Shown: in pieces, positions 1,688 through 59,570 of the stretch | How the letters are laid out: each line of letters opens with the position of its first letter | Numbering within the stretch: the stretch's first letter is position 1 | Source: Flavobacteriaceae bacterium | Lineage (GTDB): Bacteria > Bacteroidota > Bacteroidia > Flavobacteriales > Flavobacteriaceae | Length of the DNA: 64,000 nt | Assembly: GCA_013215105.1 (NCBI GenBank) | Contig: JABSPL010000199.1 | Location: forward strand, 1-64,000 | Direction: 5' to 3' | Notes under the pieces: model-generated | Databases searched by the model: none | What the model was told of the DNA's origin: nothing | Seen by the model: only the letters and a program-made list of their open reading frames with translations | Translations under genes and position numbers: made by a program

Positions 1688-3067
1688 CTATTTCTTAATA
1701 TAAGTTCCCTTATAGTCACCTTGTCTTAATTCCATTTTGTTTTGCTCTGGGAAGAATTCATAGTACATAGATTCTGCATAAACTTGCTCAAACTCAAAGT
1801 AATTACCTCCTCTATAAACCAAATTTTCTTTAAGATCTTCTTTCATTACTAGTATTAAGAACTTCTCATCACTAGTAAAAGTAATATTCCAAGCTTCTTC
1901 TCCTTCTTTTACTTCTTCCTCAATATAAACGCCTACATATTTTTTTAAGTCAGCCTCCGATATTTCAATCAATTCGTCATTAAAATAATATTCTAATGCC
2001 GTAGTCATTATTTCATTTTGGTTATTATCCATTCCGTTAGATAGTAATGAAATACTCAATTTATCTTTAGGAAAATATATAACTACCGATTTGAAACCAT
2101 CTATAGACCCTCTATGACCAAAACCTTCTCTCCCACTTATAGAAAACCTAAAAATACCCATTCCATGATTGTCACTAATTACAGTCATCATATCTAGACT
2201 CTTCTTCGAAATTATTTTTTTGGTAAACAATAAATGCATAAATTTATTTATCTCGCTAGGAGTAGAAACTATAGCAGCAGCTCCCATACCGTTAGATAAG
2301 TCTGCCTCAGCTTCCTTTACCCATTTATCATCTTTGTATTTATAAGAATAACTTTCGTTGTTGCTTATATCTGTTTTACCTCCATAATAAGTGTTTTTAA
2401 GCCCAAACGGTATAGATATCTTTTCATGTATCAATTCCTTTAAACTCATATTATACACATTTTCTAGTATTACAGATAACAATACATAATTAGAATTACT
2501 ATAAGCACCCTTGCTATTTGGCTCAAAATCACTTTCGTAAGTCGATATCATATCTACCAACTTTTCGGACGGTGTATATTCTGTATAATAAATTCTAAAA
2601 GCCTTATCACTAGTATAATTATATATTCCACTACTGTGATTAAGCAAGTTCCCTATAGTTATTTTACTTGCATTTTTTACTTTAGGAAAATAGCCGTCTA
2701 TAGTCTGTTCTATTTCCAATTTACCTTCTTCTATAGCTTTTAGAACCAATACAGCCGTAAATGTTTTAGAAATAGAACCAGTTCTATATTTAGTATTTAT
2801 ATCAGAAGCTTCCTTAGTTTCTATATCGTCAAAACCTATAGAGTTAGTATATATAGATTTCCCATCATATGCCAAAGCTATGCCTCCCATATATTTTCTG
2901 TTATCGCTATACATCGCCATCAAACTATCTAGCTTAGGTTCATCTAAACTATACTTGTTTATAACCTGTTTTACTTCTTCTCGATTTGCTTGTTTTGTTT
3001 TTTCTCCCCACGAGCAAGACGATAACATCATAATAATGGATAGAGATAATAATAATTGTTTTTTCAT
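1688..3067 (-). CDS. serine hydrolase, beta-lactamase/PBP family (PF00144-like) lipoprotein, paralog 1
   Basis: SxxK motif (SISK), YSN motif, lipobox LSSCSW; 459 aa. Confidence 0.8.
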   Translation of the reverse strand: MKKQLLLSLSIIMMLSSCSWGEKTKQANREEVKQVINKYSLDEPKLDSLMAMYSDNRKYMGGIALAYDGKSIYTNSIGFDDIETKEASDINTKYRTGSISKTFTAVLVLKAIEEGKLEIEQTIDGYFPKVKNASKITIGNLLNHSSGIYNYTSDKAFRIYYTEYTPSEKLVDMISTYESDFEPNSKGAYSNSNYVLLSVILENVYNMSLKELIHEKISIPFGLKNTYYGGKTDISNNESYSYKYKDDKWVKEAEADLSNGMGAAAIVSTPSEINKFMHLLFTKKIISKKSLDMMTVISDNHGMGIFRFSISGREGFGHRGSIDGFKSVVIYFPKDKLSISLLSNGMDNNQNEIMTTALEYYFNDELIEISEADLKKYVGVYIEEEVKEGEEAWNITFTSDEKFLILVMKEDLKENLVYRGGNYFEFEQVYAESMYYEFFPEQNKMELRQGDYKGTYIKK

Positions 3068-3137: not shown

Positions 3138-4529
3138 TTATTCTCTAAAAAAAACACCTTTACTATTACCTTGCGTATACTCTACTTTATTTAGTTCTGG
3201 AAAAAACCTATAATGTATAGCCTCTGCATAAATCTGTTCAAATACAAAGTAATTACCTCCTTTATAAACCAAATTTTCTTTAAACTCATCTCCTATAGCC
3301 AGTATTAAGAACTTCTCATCACTAATAAAAGTAAAATCACCAGGCTCTTCTCCTTCTTTTACTTTTTCTTTTGGTTCAAGATAAACACCTACATATTTTT
3401 TTAAATCAGCCTCTGATATCTCTATTAACTCATCGTTAAAATAGTAACCTAACGCAGTAGTCATTATCTCATTTTGGTTATTATCCGTTCCGTTAGATAG
3501 TAATGAAATACTCAACTTATCTTTTGGAAAATATATAACTACCGATTTGAAACCACTTAAATCCCCTCTATGACCAAAACCTTCTCTTCCACTTATAGAA
3601 AACCTAAAAATACCCATTCCATGAGTACCGCTAATCACAGTCATCATGTCTATACTCTTCTTAGAAATTATTTTCTCGCTAAACAATAAATGCATAAACT
3701 TATTTAAGTCGCTAGTAGTAGAAACTATAGCACCTGCACCCATAGCGTTAGACAGATCTCCCTCAGGTTCCTTTACCCATTTATTACCTCTGTATTTGTA
3801 AGAATTAGTTTCGTTGTTACTTAAATCTGTTTTACCTCCATAATAAGTGTTTTTAAGTCCAAACGGTATAGATATCTTTGCCTGTATCAATTCTTTTAAA
3901 CTCATATTATATACCTTTTCTAGAATTACAGATAATAACACATAATTAGAATTACTATAAGCCCCTCTGCTGTTTGGTTCAAAGTCACTTTCGTAAGTCG
4001 ATATCATATCTACCAACTTTTCAGACGGTGTATATTCTGTGTAATATGTTCTAAATGCTTTGTCGCTAGTGTAATTATATATCCCACTCCTGTGGTTAAG
4101 CAAGTTGCCGATGGTTATTTTACTTGCATTTTTCACTTTAGGGAAATAACCTTCTATAGTCTGTTCTATTTTTAATTTACCCTCTTCTATTGCTTTAAAA
4201 ACCAATACAGCTGTAAATGTTTTAGAAATAGAACCTATTCTATATTTAGTATTTATATCAGAAGTCTCCTTAGTTTCTATATCGTTAAAACCTATAGAGT
4301 TAGTATATATAGACTTTCCGTCGTGTGCCAAAGCTATTCCTCCCATATATTTTCCGTTATCACTATACACAGCAAGCAGACTATCTAGCTTAGGCTCGTC
4401 TAAACTATACTTGCTTATAATCTGTTTTACTTCTTCTTCGCCTTGTTTTGCTTGTTTTGTTTTTTCGCCCCATGAGCAAGACGATAACATTATAATAATG
4501 GATAACGATAATAATAATTGTTTTTTCAT
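3138..4529 (-). CDS. serine hydrolase, beta-lactamase/PBP family lipoprotein, paralog 2 (tandem duplicate)
   Basis: roughly 85% aa identity to adjacent ORF (estimated by eye); same SISK/YSN motifs and identical signal peptide. Confidence 0.8.
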   Translation of the reverse strand: MKKQLLLSLSIIIMLSSCSWGEKTKQAKQGEEEVKQIISKYSLDEPKLDSLLAVYSDNGKYMGGIALAHDGKSIYTNSIGFNDIETKETSDINTKYRIGSISKTFTAVLVFKAIEEGKLKIEQTIEGYFPKVKNASKITIGNLLNHRSGIYNYTSDKAFRTYYTEYTPSEKLVDMISTYESDFEPNSRGAYSNSNYVLLSVILEKVYNMSLKELIQAKISIPFGLKNTYYGGKTDLSNNETNSYKYRGNKWVKEPEGDLSNAMGAGAIVSTTSDLNKFMHLLFSEKIISKKSIDMMTVISGTHGMGIFRFSISGREGFGHRGDLSGFKSVVIYFPKDKLSISLLSNGTDNNQNEIMTTALGYYFNDELIEISEADLKKYVGVYLEPKEKVKEGEEPGDFTFISDEKFLILAIGDEFKENLVYKGGNYFVFEQIYAEAIHYRFFPELNKVEYTQGNSKGVFFRE

Positions 4530-4897: not shown

Positions 4898-5308
4898 ATG
4901 AGAAAAATAATCACAAGCTTAATACTTATTGTAATTATAGCTTCATGCTCTAAAAATGAATCAGTCGATATACCTAAACCTGTCGAACCTGAATTAGTAG
5001 GAGAATGGAAATTAACCGAAATTTTGGCTGACGCAGGAGACGGAAACGGAGTGTTTCAGCCTACAGAAAGCAATAAAACTATAAGATTTAAGGCTGATGG
5101 AACTATAGTATCTGATATATCTTTATGTAATCCTTATTCTGAAGAAATTATATATCATGCAACTTATGACCTTAGCACTAACAGTATAACTACAGGTTGC
5201 GAGAATACAAATATATCTTCTATATGGTTCGAAATATCTGGTGAGAATCTGATATTAAACTTCTTGTCAATTGAAGGTTATTCTCAGAAATTTGAGAAAA
5301 TAGAATAA
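4898..5308 (+). CDS. hypothetical lipoprotein
   Basis: signal peptide + lipobox IIASCSK; 136 aa; followed by hairpin terminator. Confidence 0.6.
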   Translation: MRKIITSLILIVIIASCSKNESVDIPKPVEPELVGEWKLTEILADAGDGNGVFQPTESNKTIRFKADGTIVSDISLCNPYSEEIIYHATYDLSTNSITTGCENTNISSIWFEISGENLILNFLSIEGYSQKFEKIE

Positions 5309-5396: not shown

Positions 5397-5625
5397 TTGT
5401 AAAAATGGAGCTATTGTCTTTAAAAGTGCAACTAAACTTTATATTAGAATAAAAGCTACATAACCTTTTGATTATATAGTACATTAATATTCTCATCGAC
5501 AACCCTAAAAGATATAATTTGTAACATATAAGAATCATTCATGATAATATAAATATTTAACATCAGTAGATGCTCTAATTTCATAAATTTATATAACTTT
5601 GAATTTCTATTTTAAAACTTAAACT

Positions 5626-6221: not shown

Positions 6222-7664
6222 ATGAACACCATTTTATTACCATTACAGATAAGTTCTACAGGAGCTACAGGAGTCTACTTGATAGTAGCAATACTTCTAA
6301 TATTTTTTGTATTTATCTTCTCTATGCTTAGAAGGTACAAACGATGTCCTTCAGACAAAATACTAGTTATTTACGGTAAAACTAGCGGGGAAGGATCGTC
6401 TAAATGTATACATGGTGGAGCTGCTTTCATCTGGCCTATAATTCAAGATTATTCTTTCTTAGACTTAACTCCTATTTCTATAGAAGTAAACTTGATAAAC
6501 GCTTTGAGTAAGCAAAATATTAGAGTTAACGTACCTTCTCGTTTTACTATTGGAGTATCTACAGAACCTAGCATAATGCGAAATGCTGCCGAGAGATTAT
6601 TAGGCTTAAGTATGGATATGATAGAAGAATTGGCACAAGAAATAATCTTCGGTCAATTACGTTTGGTAGTTGCTTCTATGGATATTGAAGAAATAAATAC
6701 AGACAGAGATCAGTTTCTATCTCATATAACCAATAGTGTTGAGGCTGAGTTAAAAAAAGTAGGGCTGAAATTGATAAACGTAAACATTACCGATATACAT
6801 GACGAGTCTGGATATATTCAGGCTTTAGGTAAAGAAGCAGCTGCTAAGGCGATAAACGACGCTATTATTTCTGTAGCTCAAAAAGATAGAGATGGTGCTA
6901 TTGGAGAGGCACAAGCCGTACAAGACCGAAGAACACAAGTTGCTGCTGCAAATGCAAAAGCTATAGATGGAGAAAATACCGCTAAGATAAAAGTAGCACA
7001 GTCTGATGCCGAAAGAAGATCGAGAGAAGCTGAGTCTGAAAGAATAGCTAATGCAGCCGAGAAAGTACAAGCTGCAAAGGCACTAGAAGAGTCTTATGCT
7101 GCAGAAAAAATAGCCGAAGACGCTAGAGCTAAACGTAAAGAAGCAGAGCAAGGAGCCGATATAATTGTACCTGCACAGATAGATAAGCAAAAAATAGAGA
7201 TAGATGCCGAAGCTGCTGCCGAAAAAATAAGAAGAATCGCTAGAGGAGAAGCAGATGCAATTTTCTTGAAAAAGGAAGCCGAAGCAAAAGGTATTTACGA
7301 AATATTAACTAAGCAGGCTGCTGGTTTTGAAAGAATAGTAAAAGCCGCTGATGGTAGCTCTAAAGACGCTGTACTACTATTAATTGCCGACAAACTACCT
7401 GAGCTAGTTAAGACTCAGGCTGAAGCAATAAAAAACATAAAAATAGATAAAATAACAGTTTGGGAGAATGGAGGAGGAAAAGATGGAAAAACATCTACTT
7501 CTAACTTTATCTCGGGAATGTATAAAGCGGTACCTCCTTTGCAAGAAATGTTCAATATGGCTGGTATGGAATTACCTGAATATTTAAAGGGAAAAGATGT
7601 GAAAACACCATCTACAAAGGGAACTGATAAAACAGATACTGAAACAGGTGAAAACGATAACTAA
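6222..7664 (+). CDS. flotillin / SPFH (band 7) domain protein with long E/A/K-rich coiled coil
   Basis: N-terminal TM helix, SPFH core, extended EA-rich repeats (AEAAAEKIRR...) typical of YqiK/FloT. Confidence 0.85.
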   Translation: MNTILLPLQISSTGATGVYLIVAILLIFFVFIFSMLRRYKRCPSDKILVIYGKTSGEGSSKCIHGGAAFIWPIIQDYSFLDLTPISIEVNLINALSKQNIRVNVPSRFTIGVSTEPSIMRNAAERLLGLSMDMIEELAQEIIFGQLRLVVASMDIEEINTDRDQFLSHITNSVEAELKKVGLKLINVNITDIHDESGYIQALGKEAAAKAINDAIISVAQKDRDGAIGEAQAVQDRRTQVAAANAKAIDGENTAKIKVAQSDAERRSREAESERIANAAEKVQAAKALEESYAAEKIAEDARAKRKEAEQGADIIVPAQIDKQKIEIDAEAAAEKIRRIARGEADAIFLKKEAEAKGIYEILTKQAAGFERIVKAADGSSKDAVLLLIADKLPELVKTQAEAIKNIKIDKITVWENGGGKDGKTSTSNFISGMYKAVPPLQEMFNMAGMELPEYLKGKDVKTPSTKGTDKTDTETGENDN

Positions 7665-7700
7665 TATATAGATAAGTTAGTCTATTCAAATTATTTTAAA

Positions 7701-7748
7701 CATCTTAGTAAAACCTTCTATTATTGGTTTTACTAAGATGTTTTTTTG
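7701..7748 (+). terminator. rho-independent terminator
   Basis: 15-bp perfect stem catcttagtaaaacc/ggttttactaagatg + T7. Confidence 0.75.
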
Positions 7749-7897
7749 TGTTTAGATATGACTTTTGACCTATAGAAATGAAAAAACGTAATAATAACTG
7801 TATCACTTACAGTACCTGAAAAATCACATCACTAATCACACACATATCCCATAAAACAATATTTAAAACAGGTATTTCATTCTATCGAAACCTAAAT

Positions 7898-8791
7898 CTA
7901 ATTAGTTAAATTCAATTCAATAGCCAACAAATTATATTTATTTCTATACCTTCTTAAAGCTGATTCATTATTTTTATGAGTTTTTTTCCATTTCCCTTGA
8001 CTGTATCTCCAACTGTTTTCAGATGTATCAGCAGGTACTAGTCCTATAGCCGGCTCATAAGAGACTCTTATATGCTTTTTCTTTGAACCCTCTGTAGTAT
8101 AGGTGCTTTCATGCCTGTTGGCCTCTATTATTAACCATTCTACAGATACAAAAAAACCTTTTTTAGGAAATTTTATATTCAATTTGGATATATCTATTTC
8201 GGTAGTTCTTTTTCCTTTCCTAGCTACTCCTATTATATTCCCATCATAAATATAACCCTCAGGCTCATCCCTATCATTTACATCATATAATCTTATATTA
8301 AATTTAGAATTCTTAACATCACTATTAGTTAGTAGTGTTATATTATTTATGAAAGGTGTGTTTTTGTAATCTTTTTTATAATTGAAAAACCTTGCAGTCA
8401 TCCAAGGTTTTGTTCCACAGCCAAAATAACTATTGATTTTAGATTTTTTGAATTTCCCAATTGTAAATTCTCTAGTTAATTTTCGGACTTTAATAACGAC
8501 TTCTTTTAGATCGGTAAGTTGTGGATATAACTGTACCAAATCATTAATTTGATCTGATTTTATTATCCTAGTTTTAAATCCTATCGCAGAAAAAACAATA
8601 TTTTTAGGTGTATAAACTTTCAATTCAAATTTCCCTTCTTCATCAGAAGTAGCTCCTATATCTTCATTTTCTACCCATATATTTACATAAGGTATTTTTT
8701 CTTTCGTTATGCTATCTATCACTACCGATTTTAGCTGACTAAAACCGAAACTATATATCAAAATAATTATTATAAATATACGTTTTTCCAT
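7898..8791 (-). CDS. secreted carboxypeptidase-regulatory-like (CarbopepD_reg) domain protein, hypothetical
   Basis: signal peptide; 'VVIDSITKEKIPYVNIWVENEDIGATSDEEGKFEL' beta-sandwich motif. Confidence 0.6.
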   Translation of the reverse strand: MEKRIFIIIILIYSFGFSQLKSVVIDSITKEKIPYVNIWVENEDIGATSDEEGKFELKVYTPKNIVFSAIGFKTRIIKSDQINDLVQLYPQLTDLKEVVIKVRKLTREFTIGKFKKSKINSYFGCGTKPWMTARFFNYKKDYKNTPFINNITLLTNSDVKNSKFNIRLYDVNDRDEPEGYIYDGNIIGVARKGKRTTEIDISKLNIKFPKKGFFVSVEWLIIEANRHESTYTTEGSKKKHIRVSYEPAIGLVPADTSENSWRYSQGKWKKTHKNNESALRRYRNKYNLLAIELNLTN

Positions 8792-11263: not shown

Positions 11264-11623
11264 TTATTCTACTATAATATTATCTCCTTTAGGATTCTCT
11301 CCGTATTCGTTACTTCCTATATCACTGTCTGTAACGAACAATACAAGTAGCCATATAGCCCCCACCAAAGGAATAAAAGCTATAAGATACATCCATCCAC
11401 TTTTCCCTATATCGTGAAGTCTTCTTACCGAAACAGCTAATTTAGGAATGAATAAAAGTACCGAATAAATAAATAAAAGATAATTATTTCCTGTTATATA
11501 TGACATCGCAGACAGTGATACTGTAAAAATAAAATTAAACAAAACGAACATCCAATATTCTTTTCGTCTAGCTCTCCCGTTAAAGTCTGCATATTGTTTT
11601 AAAACTTTTATATACCAATCCAT
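11264..11623 (-). CDS. DUF805 family inner-membrane protein
   Basis: 'GRARRKEYWMFVLFN' signature, 3 TM helices. Confidence 0.7.
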   Translation of the reverse strand: MDWYIKVLKQYADFNGRARRKEYWMFVLFNFIFTVSLSAMSYITGNNYLLFIYSVLLFIPKLAVSVRRLHDIGKSGWMYLIAFIPLVGAIWLLVLFVTDSDIGSNEYGENPKGDNIIVE

Positions 11624-11773
11624 TTTTATTCTTCCCTACTCATAGGCTTTTCGGTATCGCCTCGTTTTTTTAGTGATATCTGAACTTCACTTTCGATATA
11701 ACAAAAGCTAATATACATTATTTAAACAAATACTATTGAGTTTTATACATAAATATAATATGGTATAACACAA

Positions 11774-13547: not shown

Positions 13548-14441
13548 TTAAAAAATTTCATTCCATTTAAAGGTTTCTGATAGCCTTATACCTCTTTCTG
13601 TTTTTTTCAATGTACACAATTCATTTACACTATCGTGCTCCATAAAGATATAGTAATCATTATCAACAACCATATTAAGAAAATCAGATTTTTCGCTCAT
13701 AGTAAGTAAAGGTCTAGTGTCGTAACCCATAACATAAGCCAGAGGAATATGTCCTACAGTAGGTAACATGTCAGCCGCAAAAACTATAGTCTTACCTTTG
13801 TATTTAATTATAGGTATCATTTGTTTTTCGGTATGCCCGTCAACGTATAGCACCGAAAAGTTCAGAGGTGATTCTTCTAAGATACTACCTTTACCTTTGT
13901 TTACAAATTTAAGTTGTCCGCTTTCTTGTATTGGAAATATATTTTCTTTAAGAAAGGAAGCTTTTTCTCTAGGATTTGGTTCTGTAGCCCAAAGCCAATG
14001 TTGCTCGTTAGACCAATATGTTGCATTTTTGAATGCGGGTCTATAACCCTGTTTGTTCTCTGTCCATTCTACAGAGCCTCCACAATGATCAAAATGTAAG
14101 TGAGTCAAAAATACATCGGTGATATCGTCTTTAGTAAAACCGTGCTTAGCCAAAGATTGTTCTAAACTAAAATCACCAAAAAGATGAAAATGCCCAAAAA
14201 ACTTTTCGGATTGTTTATTCCCTATACCTGTATCTATAAGTATAAGTCTATCTCCATCTTCTATAAGCATAGAACGCATGCTTAAAGTTATAAGATTATT
14301 AGAATCGGCAGGATTCGTTTTCTGCCAAATGGTTTTTGGCACTACTCCAAACATAGCTCCTCCGTCTAGTTTAAGATTTCCTGTCTCTATAGGGTATATT
14401 GTCATGAGTTCCTTTAATACTAAATTATATAATTGTCCCAA
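13548..14441 (-). CDS. MBL-fold metallo-hydrolase
   Basis: THLHFDHCGG zinc-binding motif. Confidence 0.8.
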   Translation of the reverse strand: MGQLYNLVLKELMTIYPIETGNLKLDGGAMFGVVPKTIWQKTNPADSNNLITLSMRSMLIEDGDRLILIDTGIGNKQSEKFFGHFHLFGDFSLEQSLAKHGFTKDDITDVFLTHLHFDHCGGSVEWTENKQGYRPAFKNATYWSNEQHWLWATEPNPREKASFLKENIFPIQESGQLKFVNKGKGSILEESPLNFSVLYVDGHTEKQMIPIIKYKGKTIVFAADMLPTVGHIPLAYVMGYDTRPLLTMSEKSDFLNMVVDNDYYIFMEHDSVNELCTLKKTERGIRLSETFKWNEIF

Positions 14442-15089
14442 AATTATATAATTTAGTTTAATAAACTATTATATAATTTTATAATTAATTGTTAAATACG
14501 ATATGCAAAACAAATACATTTCCACAAGAAAAAAGGCATCTATAAAAGATACCTTTTTTTCCCTTTTCGATTACACTTTAAATATTATTACATAAGTGCA
14601 CTTTATAGCAATCCCCCCGCCTTATAAGTCTATAAAATATTACATTTACCGACTTTCGAACACTACTTTTTTTAGTAGCGATTATCAAATGTAAACATTA
14701 TTATTCATATACACAAGTTTTTACGTAATTTCATATATTTACTTACACTGGTTCTCTATAAAAAAATTCCATTTATTGGAACTTTCTTATAGACCATCCA
14801 ATCTTTAGTCAGATAGTAAATTTACTAAAAAAAAAGTAAAACACATACTATCCTTTTCAAACACTGTATGGCAAATAACATATAAATCTGAAAGCTCAAC
14901 CAGAAGGGTGAAATATGATGTATAATATACCGTACCTACGGTATAAGCCTAAAACCAAAACAATAGTTACATTAATAAATATTGAATAGTCAAAACAAGG
15001 ATATTGAGGTTGGGCTGTACCACCCCTCTACGAGATATCCCAACGGTTAACCTCTTATATATTTTTATTTTAAACTAAAGCTAATACCA

Positions 15090-15245
15090 ATTAAATTTCT
15101 AAATGTCATAATAGAAATAGAATTATTTATTGCTTTAACAAGGCGAAAAATCTAAGTATAGCCTTAGCTATGGTTCTATTTTTTAACGCTGGTAAAGTGA
15201 AAAAGAAACTATATATATAGGACAGATGGATGTTTAACTGGTATA
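15090..15245. repeat. ~160-bp intergenic repeat element, copy A (two more copies at 50.3-50.7 kb)
   Basis: 'ttctaaatgtcataatagaaatagaattattta...aaaaagaaactatatatataggacagatggatgtttaa' matches 50535-50695 and partially 50335-50440. Confidence 0.6.
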
Positions 15246-15254
15246 AACCAAATA

Positions 15255-21782: not shown

Positions 21783-21861
21783 ATACAATTCAATTTAAAC
21801 AGACTACTTTGTCAACTTAAGGTGTTTGGGGAGGTTCTGTTTGTTTTTTTGTTTTGGTGTC

Positions 21862-22005
21862 TTTCGGTATGGGTTGTGTTACCTGTGCTTAGCATACCCA
21901 GAAGAGCGAGGGGAAAAGATTTTTAGAGTAGTAGTATATTTGATAGATTAGATTTTGAGAATGCTCCTCTATGGTTATGCCATGCTGTAGAGATCTATTT
22001 GTTTT
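21862..22005 (+). repeat. stop-codon-anchored 3' repeat element R1, including a 22-codon C-terminal gene remnant (…SVWVVLPVLSIPRRARGKDF*)
   Basis: about 90% identical by eye to 24164-24300; core 'tttttagagtagta..gatagattagattttgagaatgc.cctctatggtta' shared with 25338-25425. Confidence 0.7.
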
Positions 22006-23045: not shown

Positions 23046-23834
23046 CTAATTTATACTTTTTATTTTTTTTATTGCTTTGTTTGGGTAATTAGTAATTAGC
23101 CCATCTAATTTCAAATCTATTAGATATTGCATTTTTTCTTCATCATCTACGGTATACTTCCATACCTCTATGCCATAACTATGCGCTAAGTCCATAAAGT
23201 CTTTTGTTATTGTAGTTTTAGACCCTACTCCTATAGCATTAGAATTTATCATTTTGGCATATTCTAAAGTGTTTTTGTCTGCATAACCTTTTAAATACAG
23301 TATTTGTATGTTTTTATCTAGTTCTCGTATTTTGGAAATTACAGGGTAAGAGAATGAAAATATAATAACTTCTTCATTCATTTCTAGGTCGTTTATTATT
23401 TTTAACACACCTTCCTCTATTCCATCCACTTTTATTTCTATACAAACCTTTATTTTGCCTTTAGCCAACATCAATGACTCTCTCAGAGTTGGTATTTTTT
23501 CATCTTTATACTTATCGCTAAACTTATCAGGGTAGCCAACTCTTACATCTACTAACTCCTGATATGTCATATTTGCAACATATCCTTTTTTCGAAAAACT
23601 AGTTTTATCTACAGATGAATCATGAATCACAACTATAGAATCGTTTTTAGTCTTATGTACGTCTAATTCGAAATAATCGGCTCCAGAGTCTATAGCTTTA
23701 CTAAAAGCAATTAAAGTATTTTCTGGAGCTATACTAGAAAAACCACGATGTGCTATTATCTTGGTTTGAGAGTTTATTGTCATTGATATTAATAATAACA
23801 ATGACAATATGTTTTGTTTTTTAATTATATTCAT
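23046..23834 (-). CDS. glycerophosphodiester phosphodiesterase (GDPD) family, secreted
   Basis: 'HRGFSSIAPENTLIAF...ADYFELDVHKTKD' GDPD catalytic motif. Confidence 0.85.
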   Translation of the reverse strand: MNIIKKQNILSLLLLISMTINSQTKIIAHRGFSSIAPENTLIAFSKAIDSGADYFELDVHKTKNDSIVVIHDSSVDKTSFSKKGYVANMTYQELVDVRVGYPDKFSDKYKDEKIPTLRESLMLAKGKIKVCIEIKVDGIEEGVLKIINDLEMNEEVIIFSFSYPVISKIRELDKNIQILYLKGYADKNTLEYAKMINSNAIGVGSKTTITKDFMDLAHSYGIEVWKYTVDDEEKMQYLIDLKLDGLITNYPNKAIKKIKSIN

Positions 23835-23893: not shown

Positions 23894-24229
23894 GTGTCAA
23901 CTGTATTGTTAAGCGCCGTGAAGCCTATATTTAACCTAAACATAACGAGCTGTATACAATGGGGGTTTTTGCTTTCTTTAGTACTGTTACAAGAATATTA
24001 TTTAGGTGAATTCTCGCTAATAGTAACTATGTTTAACCCTATAGACCTTTCCAGAATATTGTTATTGTTACAACTTGACATAGCAGCATTACTAGGATAT
24101 ACTGGAGCAGTATTCCAAAAATTCTTTGGTACTAGTATGGGGATGATAACCTCTATAGCTATGCTTTCGGTATGGGTTGTGTTACCTGTGCTTAGTATAC
24201 CCGGAAGAGCGAGGAAGAAAGATTTTTAG
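23894..24229 (+). CDS. hypothetical membrane-protein fragment (probable gene remnant)
   Basis: no N-terminal context; C-terminal 22 aa and 3' flank repeated at 21862. Confidence 0.35.
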   Translation: MSTVLLSAVKPIFNLNITSCIQWGFLLSLVLLQEYYLGEFSLIVTMFNPIDLSRILLLLQLDIAALLGYTGAVFQKFFGTSMGMITSIAMLSVWVVLPVLSIPGRARKKDF

Positions 24230-24300
24230 AGTAGTAATAGTAGATTTGATAGATTAGATTTTGAAAATGCCCCTCTATGGTTAGCCATGCCTATAAATGT
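24164..24300 (+). repeat. 3' repeat element R2
   Basis: see R1. Confidence 0.7.
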
Positions 24301-24379
24301 GTGTTTTTTTAAATTAAATATCTAATTACAGAGATATATTATCTTTTTAAAGTATTTGTGCTGATTTGTAAATTGGAAG

Positions 24380-25345
24380 TTGTTTTTTAAACAATATATT
24401 TGTAACCACAATCATAAAACCTTTTTAATGAAAATTAAAACACAGTATATCCTAATTCTTGTATTAGTTATATTAATTTCTTGTAAAGAAAAAATTAAAA
24501 CAGAAAACAACAATACGACTATAAATATAAAATCATCAAAAAAAGAAGAGGTAAAACCTTATAAGATATATAATAGTGAAGTTTTTTCTATAAAATCGGA
24601 TATTATAGGGAAGGAGTATAAGATATATGTCAAATTACCTAAATCTTATAAAAAATCAGACAAGAGCTATCCTATATTGATGCTTACTGATGCTAATTAT
24701 TCATTCCCTTTAGTTTCGTCTATTTACCGAAGACTGAGTTCTAAGGTTGATCCGTTTATTATAATTGGTATTTCTTACGCAAAGGGAGAGCATTTCGGAA
24801 CAAGTAGGACAAGGGACTATACACCTACGTATTCTCCTAATGAACCAAATGGCTATACAAAAGAATCAAGACTTTCATCAGGGCAAGCAGATAAATTTAT
24901 AGATTTTATGACTAATCAGCTGATGGTTACTTTACAAAACAAATACAGAATAGACGCTAGTAAAAAAGTGTTTGCAGGGCATTCGTTAGGAGGTTTACTG
25001 GCAAACTATATGGTTGTGAGCAAGCCCGAAAGCTTTGATTATTATCTGTCAGGAAGTCCTTCACTCTGGTATCATGATAAATCTATATTAGAAATAGAAG
25101 AGAAATATAGTAAAACTGTAAGTGATATAAAAGCTAATTTGTTTATGTGTATAGGAGGTAAAGAAGAAACTCAAGGAGAGTATAAAATGATATCGGATAT
25201 GTACGAATTTCAGAAAAAACTACTGTCTAGAAACTACAAAAGCTTAAATATAAAAAGTGTAGTTGTAGACGATGAAGACCATGAAACGGTATACCCTAGT
25301 TTTATAACAAAAGGTATTATTATGGCTTTTGGCAAAGGTTTTTAG
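24380..25345 (+). CDS. alpha/beta-hydrolase esterase (putative esterase / enterochelin-esterase-like) lipoprotein
   Basis: GHSLGG nucleophile elbow; lipobox LISCKE. Confidence 0.75.
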   Translation: MFFKQYICNHNHKTFLMKIKTQYILILVLVILISCKEKIKTENNNTTINIKSSKKEEVKPYKIYNSEVFSIKSDIIGKEYKIYVKLPKSYKKSDKSYPILMLTDANYSFPLVSSIYRRLSSKVDPFIIIGISYAKGEHFGTSRTRDYTPTYSPNEPNGYTKESRLSSGQADKFIDFMTNQLMVTLQNKYRIDASKKVFAGHSLGGLLANYMVVSKPESFDYYLSGSPSLWYHDKSILEIEEKYSKTVSDIKANLFMCIGGKEETQGEYKMISDMYEFQKKLLSRNYKSLNIKSVVVDDEDHETVYPSFITKGIIMAFGKGF

Positions 25346-25425
25346 AGTAATAGTAGATATGATAGATTAGATTTTGAGAATACCCCTCTATGGTTACGTC
25401 ATGATGTAGAGAGGTGTTTTTTTCG
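25338..25425 (+). repeat. 3' repeat element R3 (starts at the stop codon of the esterase gene; contains hairpin + T7)
   Basis: see R1. Confidence 0.7.
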
Positions 25426-46760: not shown

Positions 46761-49157
46761 TTACCACCGATCAGAGCAGTCTCCCCATTTAGGGGTTCCC
46801 GTATTTATAGCCCCATCATTAAAACCAGAAGGTTCTGCAGCTACTCCACATGCTTTCCAAGAACTTAAATTTTGATTAAAGTCAACTGCCTGATTAAACA
46901 TGTCTGTCATATCAGAAACACGGCTAACATCCCATTCTCCTATATCTTGATTGAAAGGAGTATTAGCAAACATTGATCTCATAGAATCCACATTACTAAC
47001 ATTCCATTCTCCTATATCTTGATTGAAAGGAGTATTAGCAAGCATTAGATTCATGTATATGACATTACTAACATTCCAAGTCTTTATGTTTTGATTAAAC
47101 ATTGATGCTCCCGCAAACATTTTACCCATATGCCAAACAGAGCTAACATTCCAACCTCCTATATATTTATCGAATTTTGTTGCACTCCTAAACATCCCTC
47201 TCATATTTTTAACAGAGCTAACATCCCATTCTTTCAGATCATGATTAATATTACTACCATAAAACAGATAGCTCATATCAGTAACAGAACTAACATCCCA
47301 AGTATTAATACCCAAATCAATCCATGATTGATCATCTAGGCTAACACTTTCGAACATCCATCTCATATTAGTCACTCCTTCCATATTCGGTTTGTTTATA
47401 GAGGACATAGTTTTTAATCTAGAACAGCTCTTAAAATACCCACCTTCGTTACCAAATCTAAAATCATCTCCCCATCTAAGAATTTTTATTATTTTATATT
47501 TAGATGTTGAATTTTTATCAAAACTAAAACCATGTAACTTACCTTTTATAATCACTGTCATATCTCCTGATCTATCAAATATATGAGAGGCTCCTGCATC
47601 ATTGTGACTAGTAACACTTTCACTATCATAATATCCTGATGAAGAATGCCAGTCAATTTTGAAATCATAATCTCCTCCATCATATATAGGTAATTCTATT
47701 TTATCTCCGGAGTTAACAGAAAAAACAATAACAAAATCGGCTTTACTTATAGTAATGCTATATTCTTTACTTGTACTTTTATCTTCCGATGTTACAATGA
47801 ACCTATTATTAACACCTTCCTGATCTAAATAGACCTTCCTTAAATTTGTAATTTCAATACCATTCACCTCTAAAGAAGCTCCTTCACTTATATTTAATCC
47901 TAATGATGAATCACCTATATTTTCACCAATATATAAGTTAAGTTCTATAATATCTGTTACGGGTATACTACTGCCATATCTATTTAAGGAAGTAATTAAT
48001 GCTTCGTTGTTTTTAGATATATTGACTACTATAGAGTACTCTTTACTAGTTTTCAGATCTTCTGAGGTAACTACAAAAGTCCTTTTAACTCCATCATCAA
48101 AAATGAGATTATTTAAATTTGTTATTTTAATACCATTCTCACTTATAGATGCTCCTGCACTTATAGTTAAATTTAGAGTCTGTATTTCTTCTTTATAAGG
48201 AGAAGAAACATCAATATCATCACTTATTTCTACATCCTGATTATTGTAGCTTATTGAAACTATTTTAGCTTCACTGCCTTTCTCCACACTAATGGTTATA
48301 GAGTACTCTTTACTAGTTTTCAGATCTTCTGAAGTAACTACAAAAGTCCTTTTAACTCCATCATCAAAAATGAGATTATTTAAATTTGTTATTTTAATAC
48401 CATTTTCACTTATAAATGCTCCTGTACTTATAGTTAAATTTAGAGTCTGTATTTCTTCTTTAGAAGGAGAAGAAACATCAATATCATCACTTATTTCTAT
48501 ATCCTGATTATTGTAGCTTATTGAAATTATTTTAGCAGAATTAGATTTCTCTATATTAATAGTTATACTATATTCTTTACTAGCAGATCTATCTTCTGAA
48601 ATTACTATAAAGACTCTCTTAATTCCATCGTTAAAAATAAGATCACTTAATATTGTTATTTCATTATTCCCTTCTTTTAATGTAGCACCCTCACTTATGT
48701 CCAGAGTTATTGTTTGTATTTCTTCGCCATAAGATAAATTAATATTAACATTACTTTTAACTTCTACAGGCTTATCATTATATATTATTGATATCATACT
48801 AGCCTTAGTACTTTTTGGGGAATTAATGGTTAAAGTATACTCGTTAGCTGTCCCATCTTGAGCCGTCACCAGTAAAACCTGAGGAACACCGTTTTCTAAT
48901 TTTAGATCACTAAGGCTAGGAGATATCGTTGCTCCATAACTTACAACTCCAGAGAGTTCAATATCTGATAGGTCTATGTTTTGACTAATAGTAATAGATA
49001 TAGAGTTATTTTCATCAATAATGGTCTCTACAGAATAAGACTTAGCCCCTATTGATAGCTCAACCAAATAAGCCTCGCTATTTAAGACTGGTGTATATTT
49101 ATAACAGCTAAACATCAAAAGTAGCATAGCCAATGAAATTAATGATTTATTCTTCAT
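46761..49157 (-). CDS. BspA-type leucine-rich-repeat (DUF285) surface protein with N-terminal tandem Ig-like repeats
   Basis: C-terminal 'W.VSNV..M..MF..A..FNQDI..W' DUF285 repeats; five ~89-aa N-terminal repeats, three nearly identical. Confidence 0.75.
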   Translation of the reverse strand: MKNKSLISLAMLLLMFSCYKYTPVLNSEAYLVELSIGAKSYSVETIIDENNSISITISQNIDLSDIELSGVVSYGATISPSLSDLKLENGVPQVLLVTAQDGTANEYTLTINSPKSTKASMISIIYNDKPVEVKSNVNINLSYGEEIQTITLDISEGATLKEGNNEITILSDLIFNDGIKRVFIVISEDRSASKEYSITINIEKSNSAKIISISYNNQDIEISDDIDVSSPSKEEIQTLNLTISTGAFISENGIKITNLNNLIFDDGVKRTFVVTSEDLKTSKEYSITISVEKGSEAKIVSISYNNQDVEISDDIDVSSPYKEEIQTLNLTISAGASISENGIKITNLNNLIFDDGVKRTFVVTSEDLKTSKEYSIVVNISKNNEALITSLNRYGSSIPVTDIIELNLYIGENIGDSSLGLNISEGASLEVNGIEITNLRKVYLDQEGVNNRFIVTSEDKSTSKEYSITISKADFVIVFSVNSGDKIELPIYDGGDYDFKIDWHSSSGYYDSESVTSHNDAGASHIFDRSGDMTVIIKGKLHGFSFDKNSTSKYKIIKILRWGDDFRFGNEGGYFKSCSRLKTMSSINKPNMEGVTNMRWMFESVSLDDQSWIDLGINTWDVSSVTDMSYLFYGSNINHDLKEWDVSSVKNMRGMFRSATKFDKYIGGWNVSSVWHMGKMFAGASMFNQNIKTWNVSNVIYMNLMLANTPFNQDIGEWNVSNVDSMRSMFANTPFNQDIGEWDVSRVSDMTDMFNQAVDFNQNLSSWKACGVAAEPSGFNDGAINTGTPKWGDCSDRW
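47780..48860 (-). repeat. intragenic tandem repeats (~267-bp period) within BspA-like gene
   Basis: 'SKEYSITI...FDDGVKRTFVVTSEDLKT' repeated; supplied ORFs 48007-48198 and 48292-48507 are near-identical artefacts of these repeats. Confidence 0.8.
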
Positions 49158-49399: not shown

Positions 49400-50230
49400 A
49401 AAGAAATGCTAGCAGTCACAACGGTAGATTTATTGTCTTCTTTATTTATTTTATTCCAAGCAAAATATAGCTTACCATCGGCTAATTCCATCTGAGGAAA
49501 ACCATTTATTCTTGAATCAATTTCCAACTATACAGCTATAGATTCTCCTATTTTCCCCGATTTATTGACTTTAACAAATTTAAGAGCTCCACCCTCTTCT
49601 ATAGTCTCTACCCAGCTAACAACTATATTGTCTTTATCTATCATAGCTATACCTACTCTTCCTACAGGGTTAATATTAGATATAGTAATAGGCTTATCGA
49701 AGTTTTCACCACTATCGTCCGAAAACACTAGACTAACTCTAGCCTTTACAGAGGGAGCAGTAAACCAAGCGATAGCTAAACTATTGTATATAGCATCTGC
49801 TTTAGCTCCATTTACAGGACGTCCTTTAATAGTCCAATTGTCATCAAAAATAGTCTTAGGGTTTGTCCAATCACCATCAGCTAACCTAGTTATATAGAAA
49901 TCTCTAACTTCATCATCCCTTCAGTCTCTATAAATAACTACGGGTTCTTTACTGGTTATAGCAGCAGTAGTACCACAGCAATCACAAACTTTGGCATCTA
50001 GCTCTATTTAGTTTATAATAGTTCCATCAGCCGAAATTTCAACAGCCCTTATACTCAGAGCTCCTGTTTTACTAGTAGTATATCTCCAGTCTAACCAAGT
50101 AATAAAAAATGATTTTTCTCTGTAAGGCAGAATAGTAACAAAACCATGTTTGGCTGTAACTCTATCGGTATTCAAGGCTACGTTTGTATTCTATTTGGAG
50201 TTCTTAGAGTTATAAAAATCGTATTTGATA
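49400..50230 (-). pseudogene. BNR/Asp-box (sialidase-like) protein, disrupted
   Basis: Asp-box 'SDDSGENF'; at least three in-frame stops (TAG at 49525-49527, TGA near 49920, TAG near 50190) break a continuous homologous frame. Confidence 0.5.
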
Positions 50231-50334
50231 TCGTAAGTAAAACCATCTTAAGTTTATAAAGCAGTATGTTTAATAAAATAATTAAGCTATAAACAAAGGA
50301 TAATAAGACTGTTAATACCAATCGTATTTAAAAC

Positions 50335-50695
50335 TAATATTATTTAAATGTTCTACGTGAGCTATATTTAAAATAGAAAAGAACTCGTAAAAGTAAAAAA
50401 ATAGGCTATTTATATAGGGCAGATGGAAGTTTAAATAATATAAACTACTCTTTATACTTAGGATAAACTATTTTTTTTATGTTTACGAAAAGTAATTGTT
50501 ACATTTATACTCTTAAATCGTTATAATATATTAATGCTACTTGTATTTCTAAATATCATAATAGAGATGGAATTATTTAAGACTAATATTATTAAGATGT
50601 TCTATGATATCTATTTTTAAAATAAGATAAGAACCCGTAAAAGCAAAAAAGAAACTATTTATATAGTGAGCAGATAGAGATTCAAATGGCATAAC
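50335..50695. repeat. two tandem copies (B1 50335-50440, B2 50535-50695) of the ~160-bp intergenic element also found at 15090-15245
   Basis: direct sequence comparison. Confidence 0.6.
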
Positions 50696-51452: not shown

Positions 51453-52250
51453 TTAATTCATGTTTTGTATTTTCTTTGTGGCTTTATCGGGGTAATTAGT
51501 GATTAGTCCATCTAATTTTAGGTCTATCAGATTCTGCATCTTTTCTTCATCATCTATAGTATATTTCCATACTTCTATGCCATGGCTATGTGCTAAGTCT
51601 ATAAAATCTTTGGTTATTACAGTCTTAGACCCTACCCCTATGGCCTTAGAATTTATCATTTTGGCGTAGTCTATAGTGTTTTTGTCAGCGTAACCTTTTA
51701 GGTATAGTATAGGTGTATTTTCGTCTAGTTTCCTTATTTTTGATATTACAGGATAATAAAAGGAGAATATAATCACTTGCTCATTCATCCCTAGGTCGTT
51801 GATTATTTTTAAGACATCTTCTTCTATTCCATATACTTTTATTTCTATACAAACCTTTATTTTACCTTTGGCTAGGCTCAATGATTCTCTCAGGGTTGGT
51901 ATTTTTTCATCCTTATATTTATCTCCAAATTAGTCAGGGGATCCAACTTTTATATTGATTAATTCCTGATATGTCATATCTGCAACCTCTCCTTTTTTAT
52001 AAAAACTGGTTTTGTCTACCGATGAATCGTGAATTACTACTATAGAGTCATTTTTGGTTTTATGAACATCTAATTCGAAATAATCGGCTCCAGAATCTAT
52101 TGCTTTACTAAATGCCGTTAGGGTATTTTCTGGTGCTATACTAGAAAAGCCACGATGTGCTATTATTTTGGTTTGAGAGTTTATTGTCATTGAAATCAAT
52201 AATAATAATAATAATAATAAGATTAGTTTTAAGTTTTTAATTGTGTTCAT
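51453..52250 (-). pseudogene. glycerophosphodiester phosphodiesterase paralog, frameshifted (two ORFs 51930-52250 and 51453-51881)
   Basis: both halves 80-90% identical by eye to 23046-23834 protein; frame breaks near 51900-51930. Confidence 0.7.
52198..52220. repeat. (AAT)7 microsatellite encoding poly-Leu in the GDPD paralog signal peptide
   Basis: aataataataataataataa. Confidence 0.8.
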
Positions 52251-52885
52251 GAGTCGTTTGTTTATAGTCCTTATAATAAATTTCGGGTCTTTAAAAATGG
52301 CTTTTTTTTAGAAATAAAAGCCAGACTTTTATCTGTATATGCTTGTGGCAAAACTGCTGACTTTAGTATATATCGTGGTGTTAGATAAAATATATATACA
52401 GGAAAAACAAATACCTTGACGGTCAAAAAAGATATTGTAGTTATATTAGTAATTAAGTTAAAAGGTTCTGTATTGTATTTATTCACAGCTATCACTTTTT
52501 GATTATACAGCTACAAATATATTTTTTTTTAGATATCTAATATGTTATTAAGTAGCACATAGTTGATATTTAACCTAAACATAACAACTATATAAATATT
52601 ACTTATTGTATCTGTAAGTAATACCAACCTAAGTTTGCATATATCTATTTCTACAAGGGCATTTTGAAATACCAATGCAAATGCAGAGTCGTTTAACTAT
52701 AAAATAAAACTATTCAGAGTAAACTTAAGAGGGGTTTCTGATACTAAGTTTTTTATGTTTAGGCTACATAAACTTTTTACCTAATCTCCCAGAAATATAT
52801 GTGAGCCATTTAAATGTATAAAAAAAGCCAACCAGATTAATGATTGACGGATTTTTATATTTAGCCTCTGTTTTGCATAAATCAC

Positions 52886-55969: not shown

Positions 55970-56174
55970 TTATTATGCTAGAACTTGTTACGGTCATCTG
56001 GCAGGGAAGTTAGGGATCAATACCGTTTTAACATCCAAATGTCGCATGCAGATAGTTTCTTTTTCACTTTTACTGCGTTAAAAAAGGTTAAGCATAGTGA
56101 TACTATGCTTAACCTTTTCACCTTGTTAAAGCAAAAAATAATTCTATTTCTAATGCAATATTTAGATATTACAT

Positions 56175-56645
56175 TTACAACCTTTCTGCCTTACAACTAT
56201 AACATCCAGGGCCCGAGTTGTGAATATGTATATAGTTAACATAATCGTTATCAAAAGCAGTCCCTATTTCATGATTTAGCTTCTTACTATCTATAGTACT
56301 GGTATATATCATAATTCCTTCTTTATCGTAAGCTCGTATCGATAAGAATTTATTTAATAATACCTCAGGGATTTCGTTAACAGCCAAGCCAACTTTTTTT
56401 GCATCTTTTTTTACAAAAATAGGGCCACTAGACCTATATGGAGAGTCAGTTTTATGATGTTCGAAAGGAAATAAAAGTATCTCTTCTCCTATTTTTGCGT
56501 ATTTGAGACCTACCCTACAAGGAAAAGAGGTCTCCTTATCGGCTATTATTTTTATATATCCTTTGGTTAATAATTCGTCTTGGCTTAAGGTAAACAAATG
56601 ATTGTAATCGTTGTCAATTGCTGATATCTTAAAATTTGTATTCAT
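56175..56645 (-). CDS. hypothetical protein (DUF1203-like)
   Basis: 156 aa, conserved-looking 'FPCRVGL' core. Confidence 0.45.
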   Translation of the reverse strand: MNTNFKISAIDNDYNHLFTLSQDELLTKGYIKIIADKETSFPCRVGLKYAKIGEEILLFPFEHHKTDSPYRSSGPIFVKKDAKKVGLAVNEIPEVLLNKFLSIRAYDKEGIMIYTSTIDSKKLNHEIGTAFDNDYVNYIHIHNSGPGCYSCKAERL

Positions 56646-58343: not shown

Positions 58344-59570
58344 GTGTTTATTAAAGAAATAAAGATAAACTCATTTTATAAAACCTGGCAGGTAGATGCA
58401 TATAGCTGTTTGTCAAATGACCTTAAAATTATGAAACGATTAAATGTAGTAGTACTAGTAGTGTCAATGTTGTTAATGTTTTCCTATTGTGATCAAAATG
58501 ATGATACCTCAAACTCAGAAGTTGCTGATGAAAAAATAAGATCAGAATTAATTAAATTAAATGACGCTCTCCAATCTGATGAATATAAGGAACAAAAAGA
58601 TGGTAATGAAAGAACAAATAACACAAAAAACGAAAATGCTAGACAAATGATAAAGAGTAAAGTGTTAAATAGATTGTCTAAAAGAAATACAGATTGTATA
58701 TTGATCTCAAGTTATACTGAAATTATAGAAGGAGGTATTTATAAGTTTACAAGGACAGAAACTGATGAAAATTGGGTTCCACTTAAAGACTGTGAGTCTA
58801 TTATTAATGATAAAGAAGAATATGATGAAAGGTTAGGTAAAGTATCTGTAACTAGAGGATACGATACTTGGGTAGGAGAATATATTGAAAAAGGAGGGGT
58901 GTCAAGAGAATCATATAAAGATAAAGGTTCTTATGAGCATAAATATGAAATAGAAGAATATGAAGATGAAATAGATTCGGCGTATGGTTATTGGGTGGAT
59001 GGTTATTTGGTGGATGGTTATTTGGAGGATGGTTATTTGGAGGATGGTTATTGGGTGGATGATTATTGGGTGGATGATTATTGGGTGGATAGTTATTGGG
59101 TAGATGATTATTGGGTGGATGGTTATTGGGTGGAGTATGATGTAAGTTCAACTGAATATGTCGATGAATATTCCCTTAATTATTCTTCTTATTATGATTA
59201 CAAAGGAGAGTCTAATATTTCTTTTAGAGATAGAAATATGGAATTAAAAATAATCTTTGAAGACACATATTATCATGAATATGTAGATGGAAAAGAAGAT
59301 GATACGTCTATATCTAATTTAACTTTCTCTTTTGATCTAGAAGATATTAAATATAGTTTCAGAATATCTGAAGAAGATTTTGCCGCAGTAGAATATGATG
59401 AATATGAAGAATATGAAGAATATGAAGAATATGATGAAGAAATGAATTCTTATATTATTGCTACGGTAAAACTATATAGATCGGAAGTGCATGTGGGTTA
59501 TGCTTCTTTATATAGTGATCTTGGTATTAAAATATTAGATATGGATAAAAATGAATTGGATTCAAATTAG
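58344..59570 (+). CDS. acidic repeat lipoprotein with (D/E)GYW(V/L) pentapeptide tandem repeats and EYEEY tail
   Basis: probable start Met 58431 with lipobox FSYCDQ; 10 x 15-bp in-frame tandem repeats. Confidence 0.6.
   Translation: MFIKEIKINSFYKTWQVDAYSCLSNDLKIMKRLNVVVLVVSMLLMFSYCDQNDDTSNSEVADEKIRSELIKLNDALQSDEYKEQKDGNERTNNTKNENARQMIKSKVLNRLSKRNTDCILISSYTEIIEGGIYKFTRTETDENWVPLKDCESIINDKEEYDERLGKVSVTRGYDTWVGEYIEKGGVSRESYKDKGSYEHKYEIEEYEDEIDSAYGYWVDGYLVDGYLEDGYLEDGYWVDDYWVDDYWVDSYWVDDYWVDGYWVEYDVSSTEYVDEYSLNYSSYYDYKGESNISFRDRNMELKIIFEDTYYHEYVDGKEDDTSISNLTFSFDLEDIKYSFRISEEDFAAVEYDEYEEYEEYEEYDEEMNSYIIATVKLYRSEVHVGYASLYSDLGIKILDMDKNELDSN
58984..59135 (+). repeat. 10 tandem copies of 15-bp unit gatggttattgggtg (in-frame, inside CDS)
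   Basis: direct reading; complementary-strand ORF 58852-59151 (PPNNH repeats) is an artefact. Confidence 0.9.

Follow-up and report, generated by a model that had tools for sequence, protein, structure and literature searches.

A dispersed repeat of marine Flavobacteriaceae is very probably a small mobile element (MITE) with TAA/TTA target duplications

Introduction

Several groups of small dispersed repeats are close enough to the element described here to be compared with it. Tourist-type MITEs such as mPing are small and non-coding, are mobilised by PIF/Harbinger enzymes, carry terminal inverted repeats and are flanked by a 3-bp duplication that is usually TAA or TTA (PMC2836001, PMC2213677). 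The ERIC sequences of Enterobacteriaceae (~127 bp) and the Correia elements (CREE) of Neisseria (~104-157 bp) form palindromes, though imperfect ones, along their entire length, occur between genes and at gene 3' ends, are flanked by TA, and are co-transcribed with effects at the RNA level; Correia elements also carry functional promoters and an IHF site (PMC3184786). SPRITE of S. pneumoniae is a small dispersed repeat with a core resembling an intrinsic terminator (PMC3184786, PMC10969869). A census of 183,232 genomes revealed hundreds to thousands of MITE candidates in Flavobacterium and other Bacteroidota (PMC11602168), and a MITE in Flavobacteriaceae was therefore to be expected.

The repeat reported here was found in a 64-kb stretch of AT-rich DNA (~31% GC), which in its whole length is referred to as the window. 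Its copies are flanked by the same TAA and TTA triplets as Tourist-type MITEs, although the latter are eukaryotic and unrelated in sequence, and no IS5- or Harbinger-like transposase was found beside the flavobacterial element. In size, whole-length palindromy and location it resembles ERIC and Correia elements, but it has 3-bp TWA flanks, lacks a promoter consensus and resides in another host phylum; inspection by eye revealed no IHF-like motif. Its apex, a stem between an A-run and a U-run that is strong in one copy (copy C), recalls SPRITE, whereas in most copies this stem has little stability (-7 to -16 kcal/mol) and belongs to a far longer hairpin. We found no description of this MITE family among the papers searched. 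It appears to be a new family, though one of an ordinary and well-known type.

The repeat is small and non-coding, has terminal inverted repeats and a target duplication, and occurs in multiple, mostly intergenic copies, the features by which MITEs are usually recognised (PMC11602168, PMC10969869). We conclude, with a probability of roughly 0.88, that it is a small non-coding mobile element (MITE) that duplicates a TWA target and would be moved by a transposase acting in trans, and not a regulatory switch. A small non-autonomous mobile element was one of the explanations offered by the original prediction, which was made from the letters of the window alone; inverted repeats, 3-bp TAA/TTA duplications, dispersed copies in several Flavobacteriaceae genomes and a filled and an empty orthologous site now support it.

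Copies in the window

The similarity first noticed between a stretch at 15.1 kb and another at 50.3-50.7 kb is real and, according to blastn, far beyond chance. Copy A matches copy B2 in two blocks (83% over 48 nt, E = 5e-9; 80% over 55 nt, E = 2e-6) and copy B1 at 82% over 49 nt (E = 6e-8), and B1 matches B2 at 80% over 115 nt (E = 4e-22). All three of the copies originally predicted are present, but a repeat search of the whole window revealed a fourth full copy, C, that had been overlooked. In blastn, no other copy matches A as well as C does (77.6% over 152 nt, E = 5e-28). The positions of the first three copies were corrected with the help of their terminal repeats, giving the following features.

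15085-15243, plus strand: copy A, full-length, 159 bp, TAA at 15082-15084 and 15244-15246 (nhmmer E = 2e-41)
50316-50440, plus strand: copy B1, B-subtype, 125 bp, TAA at 50313-50315 and 50441-50443
50535-50691, plus strand: copy B2, B-subtype, 157 bp, TAA at 50532-50534 and 50692-50694 (nhmmer E = 3e-5)
56021-56179, minus strand: copy C, full-length, 159 aligned nt (nhmmer E = 3e-31)
52618-52680 (approximate), minus strand: possible fifth copy, internally deleted and decayed (weak, nhmmer E = 0.19), left out of the analyses

The possible fifth copy reads ATTTCAAAATGCCCTTGTAGAAATAGA ... TTGGTA/TTA, and besides this weak candidate a profile search with a very relaxed threshold found no further clear copies in the 64-kb window. 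B1 and B2 had been described as tandem copies; they have TAA flanks of their own, however, and represent two insertions at a distance of 94 bp, not a strict tandem. Of the two blocks reported as conserved, left and right are the two arms of one hairpin, and B1 lacks the first, having lost ~27 nt of the left arm through an internal deletion. B1 and B2 both have the termini of the family, but share a central ~60 nt unlike that of the other copies and so form a sub-type. Divergence among the four window copies is ~20%, and we therefore regard them as old insertions that are probably immobile.

Copy A is situated between a divergent metallo-beta-lactamase-fold gene (13548-14405, minus strand) and a Reg_prop lipoprotein gene (ATG at 15303), its end being 59 nt from the start codon of the latter. 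B1 and B2 are located upstream of a DUF4395 gene (ATG at 50723), which B2 precedes by ~30 nt. The predicted location upstream of unrelated genes thus holds for A and B, but not for C, which lies between convergent genes: it comes directly after a DUF1203 gene, at the stop codon, and on its other side a convergent gene for a GNAT acetyltransferase ends at 55969. The degenerate 5' end of copy C abuts or overlaps the TAA stop of the DUF1203 gene (56175-56177), which is the natural one since the DUF1203 C-terminus is conserved among homologues. No target duplication is recognisable around copy C, and no empty site was found for it; the closest DUF1203 homologues are 60% identical, with no near relative among them.

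Other features of the window

The window belongs to a Flavobacteriaceae MAG; proteins encoded in it also occur on ENA 'BOEU19-1' metagenome scaffolds, and one is labelled by NCBI as 'MAG: ... [Flavobacteriaceae bacterium]'. A hairpin (GAGGTTGGGCTGTACC...CCCAACGGTTAACCTC) followed by a T-rich run is found at 15007-15055 (plus strand), ~30 nt 5' of copy A; terminator-like hairpins also adjoin several family members elsewhere (loci L028, L043 and L017). The 1.5-kb gene-less stretch upstream of B1 and B2 does not look by eye like a transposase gene but, at ~49400-50250 on the minus strand, like the frameshifted remains of a beta-propeller-like (sialidase/BNR-like) gene. A GDPD (glycerophosphodiester phosphodiesterase) gene, split into two ORFs (51453-51881 and 51930-52250, minus strand) and 82% identical in DNA sequence to an intact paralogue 28 kb away (23046-23834, minus strand), is probably a pseudogene. 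Together with the beta-propeller-like remains, it may indicate that genes in the neighbourhood of the B copies are decaying.

A second, unrelated intergenic repeat family has three copies on the plus strand (21861-22004, 24164-24310 and 25331-25423) that are 70-92% identical. They have a conserved core, AAAGATTTTTAGAGTARTAGTAGATTTGATAGATTAGATTTTGAGAATGCCCCTCTATGGTTA, and a terminal hairpin (CCTCTATGG...CTGTAGAGG) with a T-run, and a further hairpin, GGTATGGGTTGTGTTACCTGTGCTTAGCATACCC, precedes two of the three. Rfam yielded no match to this family, which could be a further repeat element, a module of 3'-UTRs or an sRNA. A DUF805 RNA motif (Rfam RF03081; 67.9 bits, gathering score 51.1) was detected at 11629-11695 on the minus strand, just upstream of a 119-aa ORF (11264-11623, minus strand). 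ORF 58344-59570 encodes a 408-aa protein without Pfam match, in which ~15 tandem repeats of a 15-nt unit (GGTTATTGGGTGGAT and variants; 58945-59169, plus strand) specify a pentapeptide repeat. The adjacent paralogous genes at 1688-3067 and 3138-4529 (minus strand) have 76-89% DNA identity over the repeat blocks found, and a 267-nt unit occurs three times (48030-48830, minus strand) inside a 798-aa DUF285/cadherin-like gene.

Family beyond the window

One genome per GTDB species was scanned with a two-block pattern, and the 31 stretches obtained were sorted by blastn and nhmmer. The true relatives among them all belong to Flavobacteriaceae; the remaining stretches (Clostridia, cyanobacteria and others) were rejected by blastn and nhmmer as chance pattern matches. 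The complete MAG chromosome OZ245049.1 (locus L022) contains seven matches in the 24 kb examined, including one neighbouring pair, and further carriers are MAGs NORP150 and NORP129, a Nonlabens MAG and Aquimarina gracilis. A scan of marine metagenomes, anchored independently on the apex pattern to avoid circularity, yielded copies from five more contigs, one of them a TARA Oceans scaffold. In addition to the 4 copies in the 64-kb window, other Flavobacteriaceae genomes and metagenomes contain more than 17. A chance local duplication without further copies, considered in the original prediction, is not the case, the family being present in several Flavobacteriaceae genomes. A distant blastn search of PLSDB plasmids gave no match, and two pattern scans of IMG/VR viral contigs gave only two chance matches, which nhmmer rejected. 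Among the material scanned, family members appear to occur only in Flavobacteriaceae genomes and marine metagenomes.

At locus L022 of OZ245049.1, the copy L022d (7887-8000 of the locus) begins 30 nt before the end of an Hcp/TssD-like ORF (7611-7916), the Pfam match of which covers positions 2-91 of 128 only. This copy may have landed in the 3' end of the Hcp/TssD-like gene or have taken its place.

Description of the element

The element is ~159 bp long and has terminal inverted repeats of ~23 nt (TACCAAATACATTTCC... / ...GGATTGTAATTGGTA), with the consensus TACCAAATACATTTCCAAATGAC ... GTCATTTGGATTGTAATTGGTA. The ends are TACCAATTAAATTTC... / ...TTTAACTGGTA in copy A and TGCTACTTGTATTTC... 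/ ...TCAAATGGCA in copy B2; between 13 and 20 positions of the terminal 24 nt are complementary between the two ends in all 16 copies. Full-length copies (16) measure 153-161 nt and all copies 125-161 bp. Pairwise identity among copies is 52-96%, with a median of 65%. There is no coding capacity, the longest stop-free stretch being at most 53 codons in any frame. The consensus of the 16 full-length copies is TACCAAATnnATTTCnAAATGACnGTTTAGAAATGGAATTATTTTTTGTTTTAnCnAGGCnAAAAATCTAAGGATAGCCTTAGCTATCGTTCTATTTTTnAACnAnGnTAAAACGnAAAAGAAACTATTTATATCGGTCATTTnGnATTnTAATTGGTA.

Target duplication and empty site

The 3-nt flanks are identical in 8 of the 17 copies for which both are available, and are then only TAA/TAA (A, B1, B2, L021, L022a and L022b) or TTA/TTA (L040b and L041). 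By our own estimate from base composition, identical 3-nt flanks would arise by chance in ~3% of cases per copy. A perfect duplication is absent from the other 9 copies, several of which differ at one base, and this is compatible with decay, not proof of it. Within each of the neighbouring pairs L022a/b and L040a/b, the two elements have one triplet in common where they meet, as expected of a second insertion into the duplicated target of the first element. Read from the flanks, the duplication is of 3 bp and belongs to class TWA. A 2-bp TA duplication was rejected, as it fails for the TAA-flanked copies, the 5' flank of which ends in AA, and for L040b, whereas the 3-bp reading is symmetric. 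A MITE derived from IS630/Tc1-mariner elements (ERIC, Correia or RUP type) was rejected as well, since the TA dinucleotide duplication is lacking.

An orthologous site with and without the element was identified in different species, not in two strains of one species. In the TARA contig L041, the element lies in antisense orientation between a gene for a 237-aa 3'-5' exonuclease and a gene for a 559-aa ABC ATPase. The filled site reads, on the gene strand, ...CATATA TAA-element-TAA ATGGCAGAA, and the codons after the element are TAA ATG GCA GAA. The same exonuclease/ABC-ATPase junction in Hyunsoonleella aestuarii, the exonuclease of which is 91% identical at the protein level, reads ...CATATT TAA ATGAAAGAC and contains no element. 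A second contig is also empty; in it and in H. aestuarii, the exonuclease and ABC ATPase genes abut as ...CAT ATT TAA ATG AAA GAC...

Hairpin structure and strand bias

Applied to an alignment of 15 copies, RNAalifold predicted four helices that jointly extend over the whole element and comprise 41 base pairs, of which 24 show compensatory double changes. Structure analysis had been proposed as a way to find an RNA motif; it established a conserved hairpin, but no Rfam family. In the alignment, 88.0% of the paired cells can pair, compared to 78.1 +/- 0.9% with shuffled partners (none of 500 shuffles reached 88.0%) and 45-55% when partners were slid by 1-3 columns. The family apex consists of a 6-bp stem (GATAGC/GCTATC) inside an imperfect A-run/U-run helix. 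Folded over the whole element, copy C reaches -50.6 kcal/mol (z = -8.6); copy A has the same architecture in a decayed state, and its fold (-28.4 kcal/mol, z = -1.6) is weakly better than those of shuffled sequences.

The sense strand, in which the sequences of the element are written here, folds more stably than its complement in all 16 of 16 copies, by 5-23 kcal/mol, and no consensus structure resulted from the reverse-complemented alignment. Among the predicted pairs, the ratio of G.U to A.C cells is 78:13, a count that is biased by the folding rules. A strand-symmetric alignment of the left arm with the reverse-complemented right arm gave 100:39, with more G.U than A.C in 14 of 15 copies; G.U cells are not independent and part of their excess is inherited from the family consensus, and the excess is suggestive of a one-strand bias, not proof of it. 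Where both neighbouring genes are on one strand, six copies are co-oriented with transcription and two opposed, which is not significant (p ~0.14).

A structured non-coding RNA, namely a repeated sRNA gene, a cis-regulatory leader or a 3'-UTR element with a copy number that stems from function, could account for a long conserved hairpin with 24 of 41 pairs compensated, for the better sense fold in 16 of 16 copies and the lack of a consensus structure on the reverse complement, for the 100:39 preference for G.U and for the 6:2 co-orientation in same-direction gene pairs. We nevertheless consider it improbable as the explanation of the repeat, because the TAA/TTA duplications, the pairs with one common triplet and the filled and empty site show insertion, because the copies have no promoter consensus, no Rfam match and no consistent neighbour gene, and because the orientation bias is not significant and the G.U excess is partly inherited, from cells that are not independent. 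Selection at the RNA level could hold alongside the MITE reading rather than replace it.

Promoter and leader readings

The original prediction had also proposed that the repeat is a promoter/operator module shared by genes under a common regulator, a cis-regulatory RNA leader, or a mobile element carrying a promoter. Across loci, some copies precede genes and others follow them, and copies also occur between convergent genes and within an operon junction; their neighbour genes have nothing in common (HAD hydrolase, RNase T, Hcp/TssD, ABC ATPase, exonuclease, DUF4395, Reg_prop and others). Counting copies in other genomes and inspecting the genes behind them, as had been suggested, added further Flavobacteriaceae copies, but no consistent downstream gene. 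These varied settings and unrelated neighbours lend no support to the shared module or the leader, and neither does Rfam 15, which, over the whole window, had no match on any copy at gathering thresholds; three relaxed Rfam sub-searches returned generic hairpin matches only, far below threshold. Copy C is upstream of nothing, which argues against a promoter or a leader.

A promoter was sought on both strands as TTG, 15-23 nt, then TAnnTTTG, with at most one mismatch. This Bacteroidetes -33/-7 arrangement (-33 TTG, -7 TAnnTTTG) is absent from A, B2 and C, and the element has no conserved site for it, so that a promoter carried by the window copies is not borne out; a sigma-70 style scan is uninformative for Bacteroidetes. 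In two other genomes, at L017 (~5170-5190) and L040 (~5575-5585, copy L040b), the TTG of the 3' terminal repeat is followed after 20 nt by a perfect Bacteroidetes -7 box, which lies in the flanking DNA (TATCTTTG and TATATTTG, respectively). These insertions may have created or preserved hybrid promoters, and the element may occasionally donate half a promoter while carrying none itself. A module that places the Reg_prop lipoprotein and DUF4395 genes under a common regulator would agree with the ends of A and B2, 59 and ~30 nt before start codons, and with the possible half promoters at L017 and L040b. It is very unlikely all the same, as the -33/-7 pair is absent from the window copies on either strand, C lies between convergent genes, the L041 copy is antisense inside an operon junction, and the downstream genes are unrelated.

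Apex of copy C

The apex of copy C differs from that of its relatives and is listed here as a separate feature.

56081-56119, unstranded: stem-loop at the centre of copy C, the perfect stem of which (17-18 bp) encloses a 3-nt loop and is bordered by A- and T-runs

The stem-loop, AAAAGGTTAAGCATAGT-ATC-ACTATGCTTAACCTTTT, is flanked by A4/T6 runs and has a folding energy of -23.1 kcal/mol, compared to a range of -7.4 to -16.5 among the corresponding segments of 14 further copies. Relative to the apex of copy A, three mismatches are repaired, one U.G has become C-G, two A-U have become G-C by double changes, and one C-G has become U-A. Because of the strong stem, the A- and T-runs and the place between convergent genes, the apex of copy C is predicted to be, and probably is, a recruited bidirectional intrinsic terminator; the prediction applies to copy C alone. 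The apex stems of most other copies are weak. The strengthened apex would terminate both convergent flanking genes. A simple terminator scan (part of the sigma-70 style promoter/terminator scan) did not pick up the copy C hairpin, probably since its T-run pairs with the A-run.

Mode of movement

REPs are GC-rich palindromes of 20-40 nt. The flavobacterial element, an AT-rich hairpin of ~159 nt with a 3-bp duplication and no RAYT gene in sight, was rejected as a REP/REPIN. An IS200/IS605-type element, with no inverted repeats, no duplication and a 5'-only target, is likewise contradicted by the terminal repeats and the two-sided TAA/TTA triplets. Mobilisation as single-stranded DNA, by way of a REPIN/RAYT or an IS200/IS605-type palindrome-associated system, would suit a strand-asymmetric hairpin, the tolerance of single-stranded DNA for G.T pairs and the TAA that stands before very many of the copies. 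It is hardly credible in place of a cut-and-paste MITE, since the triplet is found on both sides, as TAA and as TTA, and so indicates a double-stranded TWA target instead of a strand-specific 5' target; moreover, the inverted repeats extend to the very termini, and neither RAYT nor TnpA genes came to light in the window or in the loci, of which L022 was the one scanned with Pfam.

For a cut-and-paste MITE, a transposase supplied in trans would recognise both element ends, and insertion at TWA (TAA or TTA) with a 3-nt staggered cut would duplicate the triplet. Since TAA abounds in AT-rich DNA between genes and also serves as the usual stop codon, copies would land in spacers and at the ends of genes. 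Upon transcription, the sense strand could fold into a hairpin of the whole element, with an apex stem between an A-run and a U-run.

The bacterial relatives of PIF/Harbinger enzymes are the IS5-family transposases, and some IS5 subgroups make 3-bp TNA/TWA duplications. By analogy with these, the 3-bp TWA duplication leads us to guess at an IS5-family or PIF/Harbinger-type DDE transposase as the parent enzyme. A search for a second pair of ends found no autonomous IS with matching ends in the window or in ~150 kb of loci, and Pfam revealed no transposase genes in the window or among the L022 neighbours. One extra end match, at L017 968-990, was discarded, as it lies inside the coding region of ribosomal protein S18 when read by eye.

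Discussion

These results remove a false lead: the shared sequence marks neither a regulon nor a riboswitch, and annotation of the genes downstream of its copies as co-regulated is unwarranted. A MITE family of marine Flavobacteriaceae is now defined by its ends, its target and its consensus, and can be used in annotation, as a strain marker and to account for breaks in MAG assemblies. Its target, TAA or TTA as in Tourist-type MITEs, places copies exactly on stop codons and operon junctions and is worth following up.

Two observations go slightly beyond the ordinary and merit attention as well, namely the one-strand bias of a full-length conserved hairpin and a copy that was apparently recruited as a terminator. 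Pairing is conserved and covarying in the interior too, beyond the terminal inverted repeats, and favours one strand, which a purely DNA-level parasite does not obviously predict. As a tentative and rather doubtful extension of the MITE reading, the element could be a mobile RNA structure under one-strand selection, beyond a decaying DNA parasite, because pairing is kept along its whole length, transitions preserving a G.U pair on the sense strand are in 2.6-6-fold excess over their counterparts for the other strand, and one copy is terminator-like. If this were true, Flavobacteriaceae would spread and maintain a ready-made hairpin by transposition into stop codons, and such a hairpin would act there as a terminator, an mRNA-stability element or a processing site.
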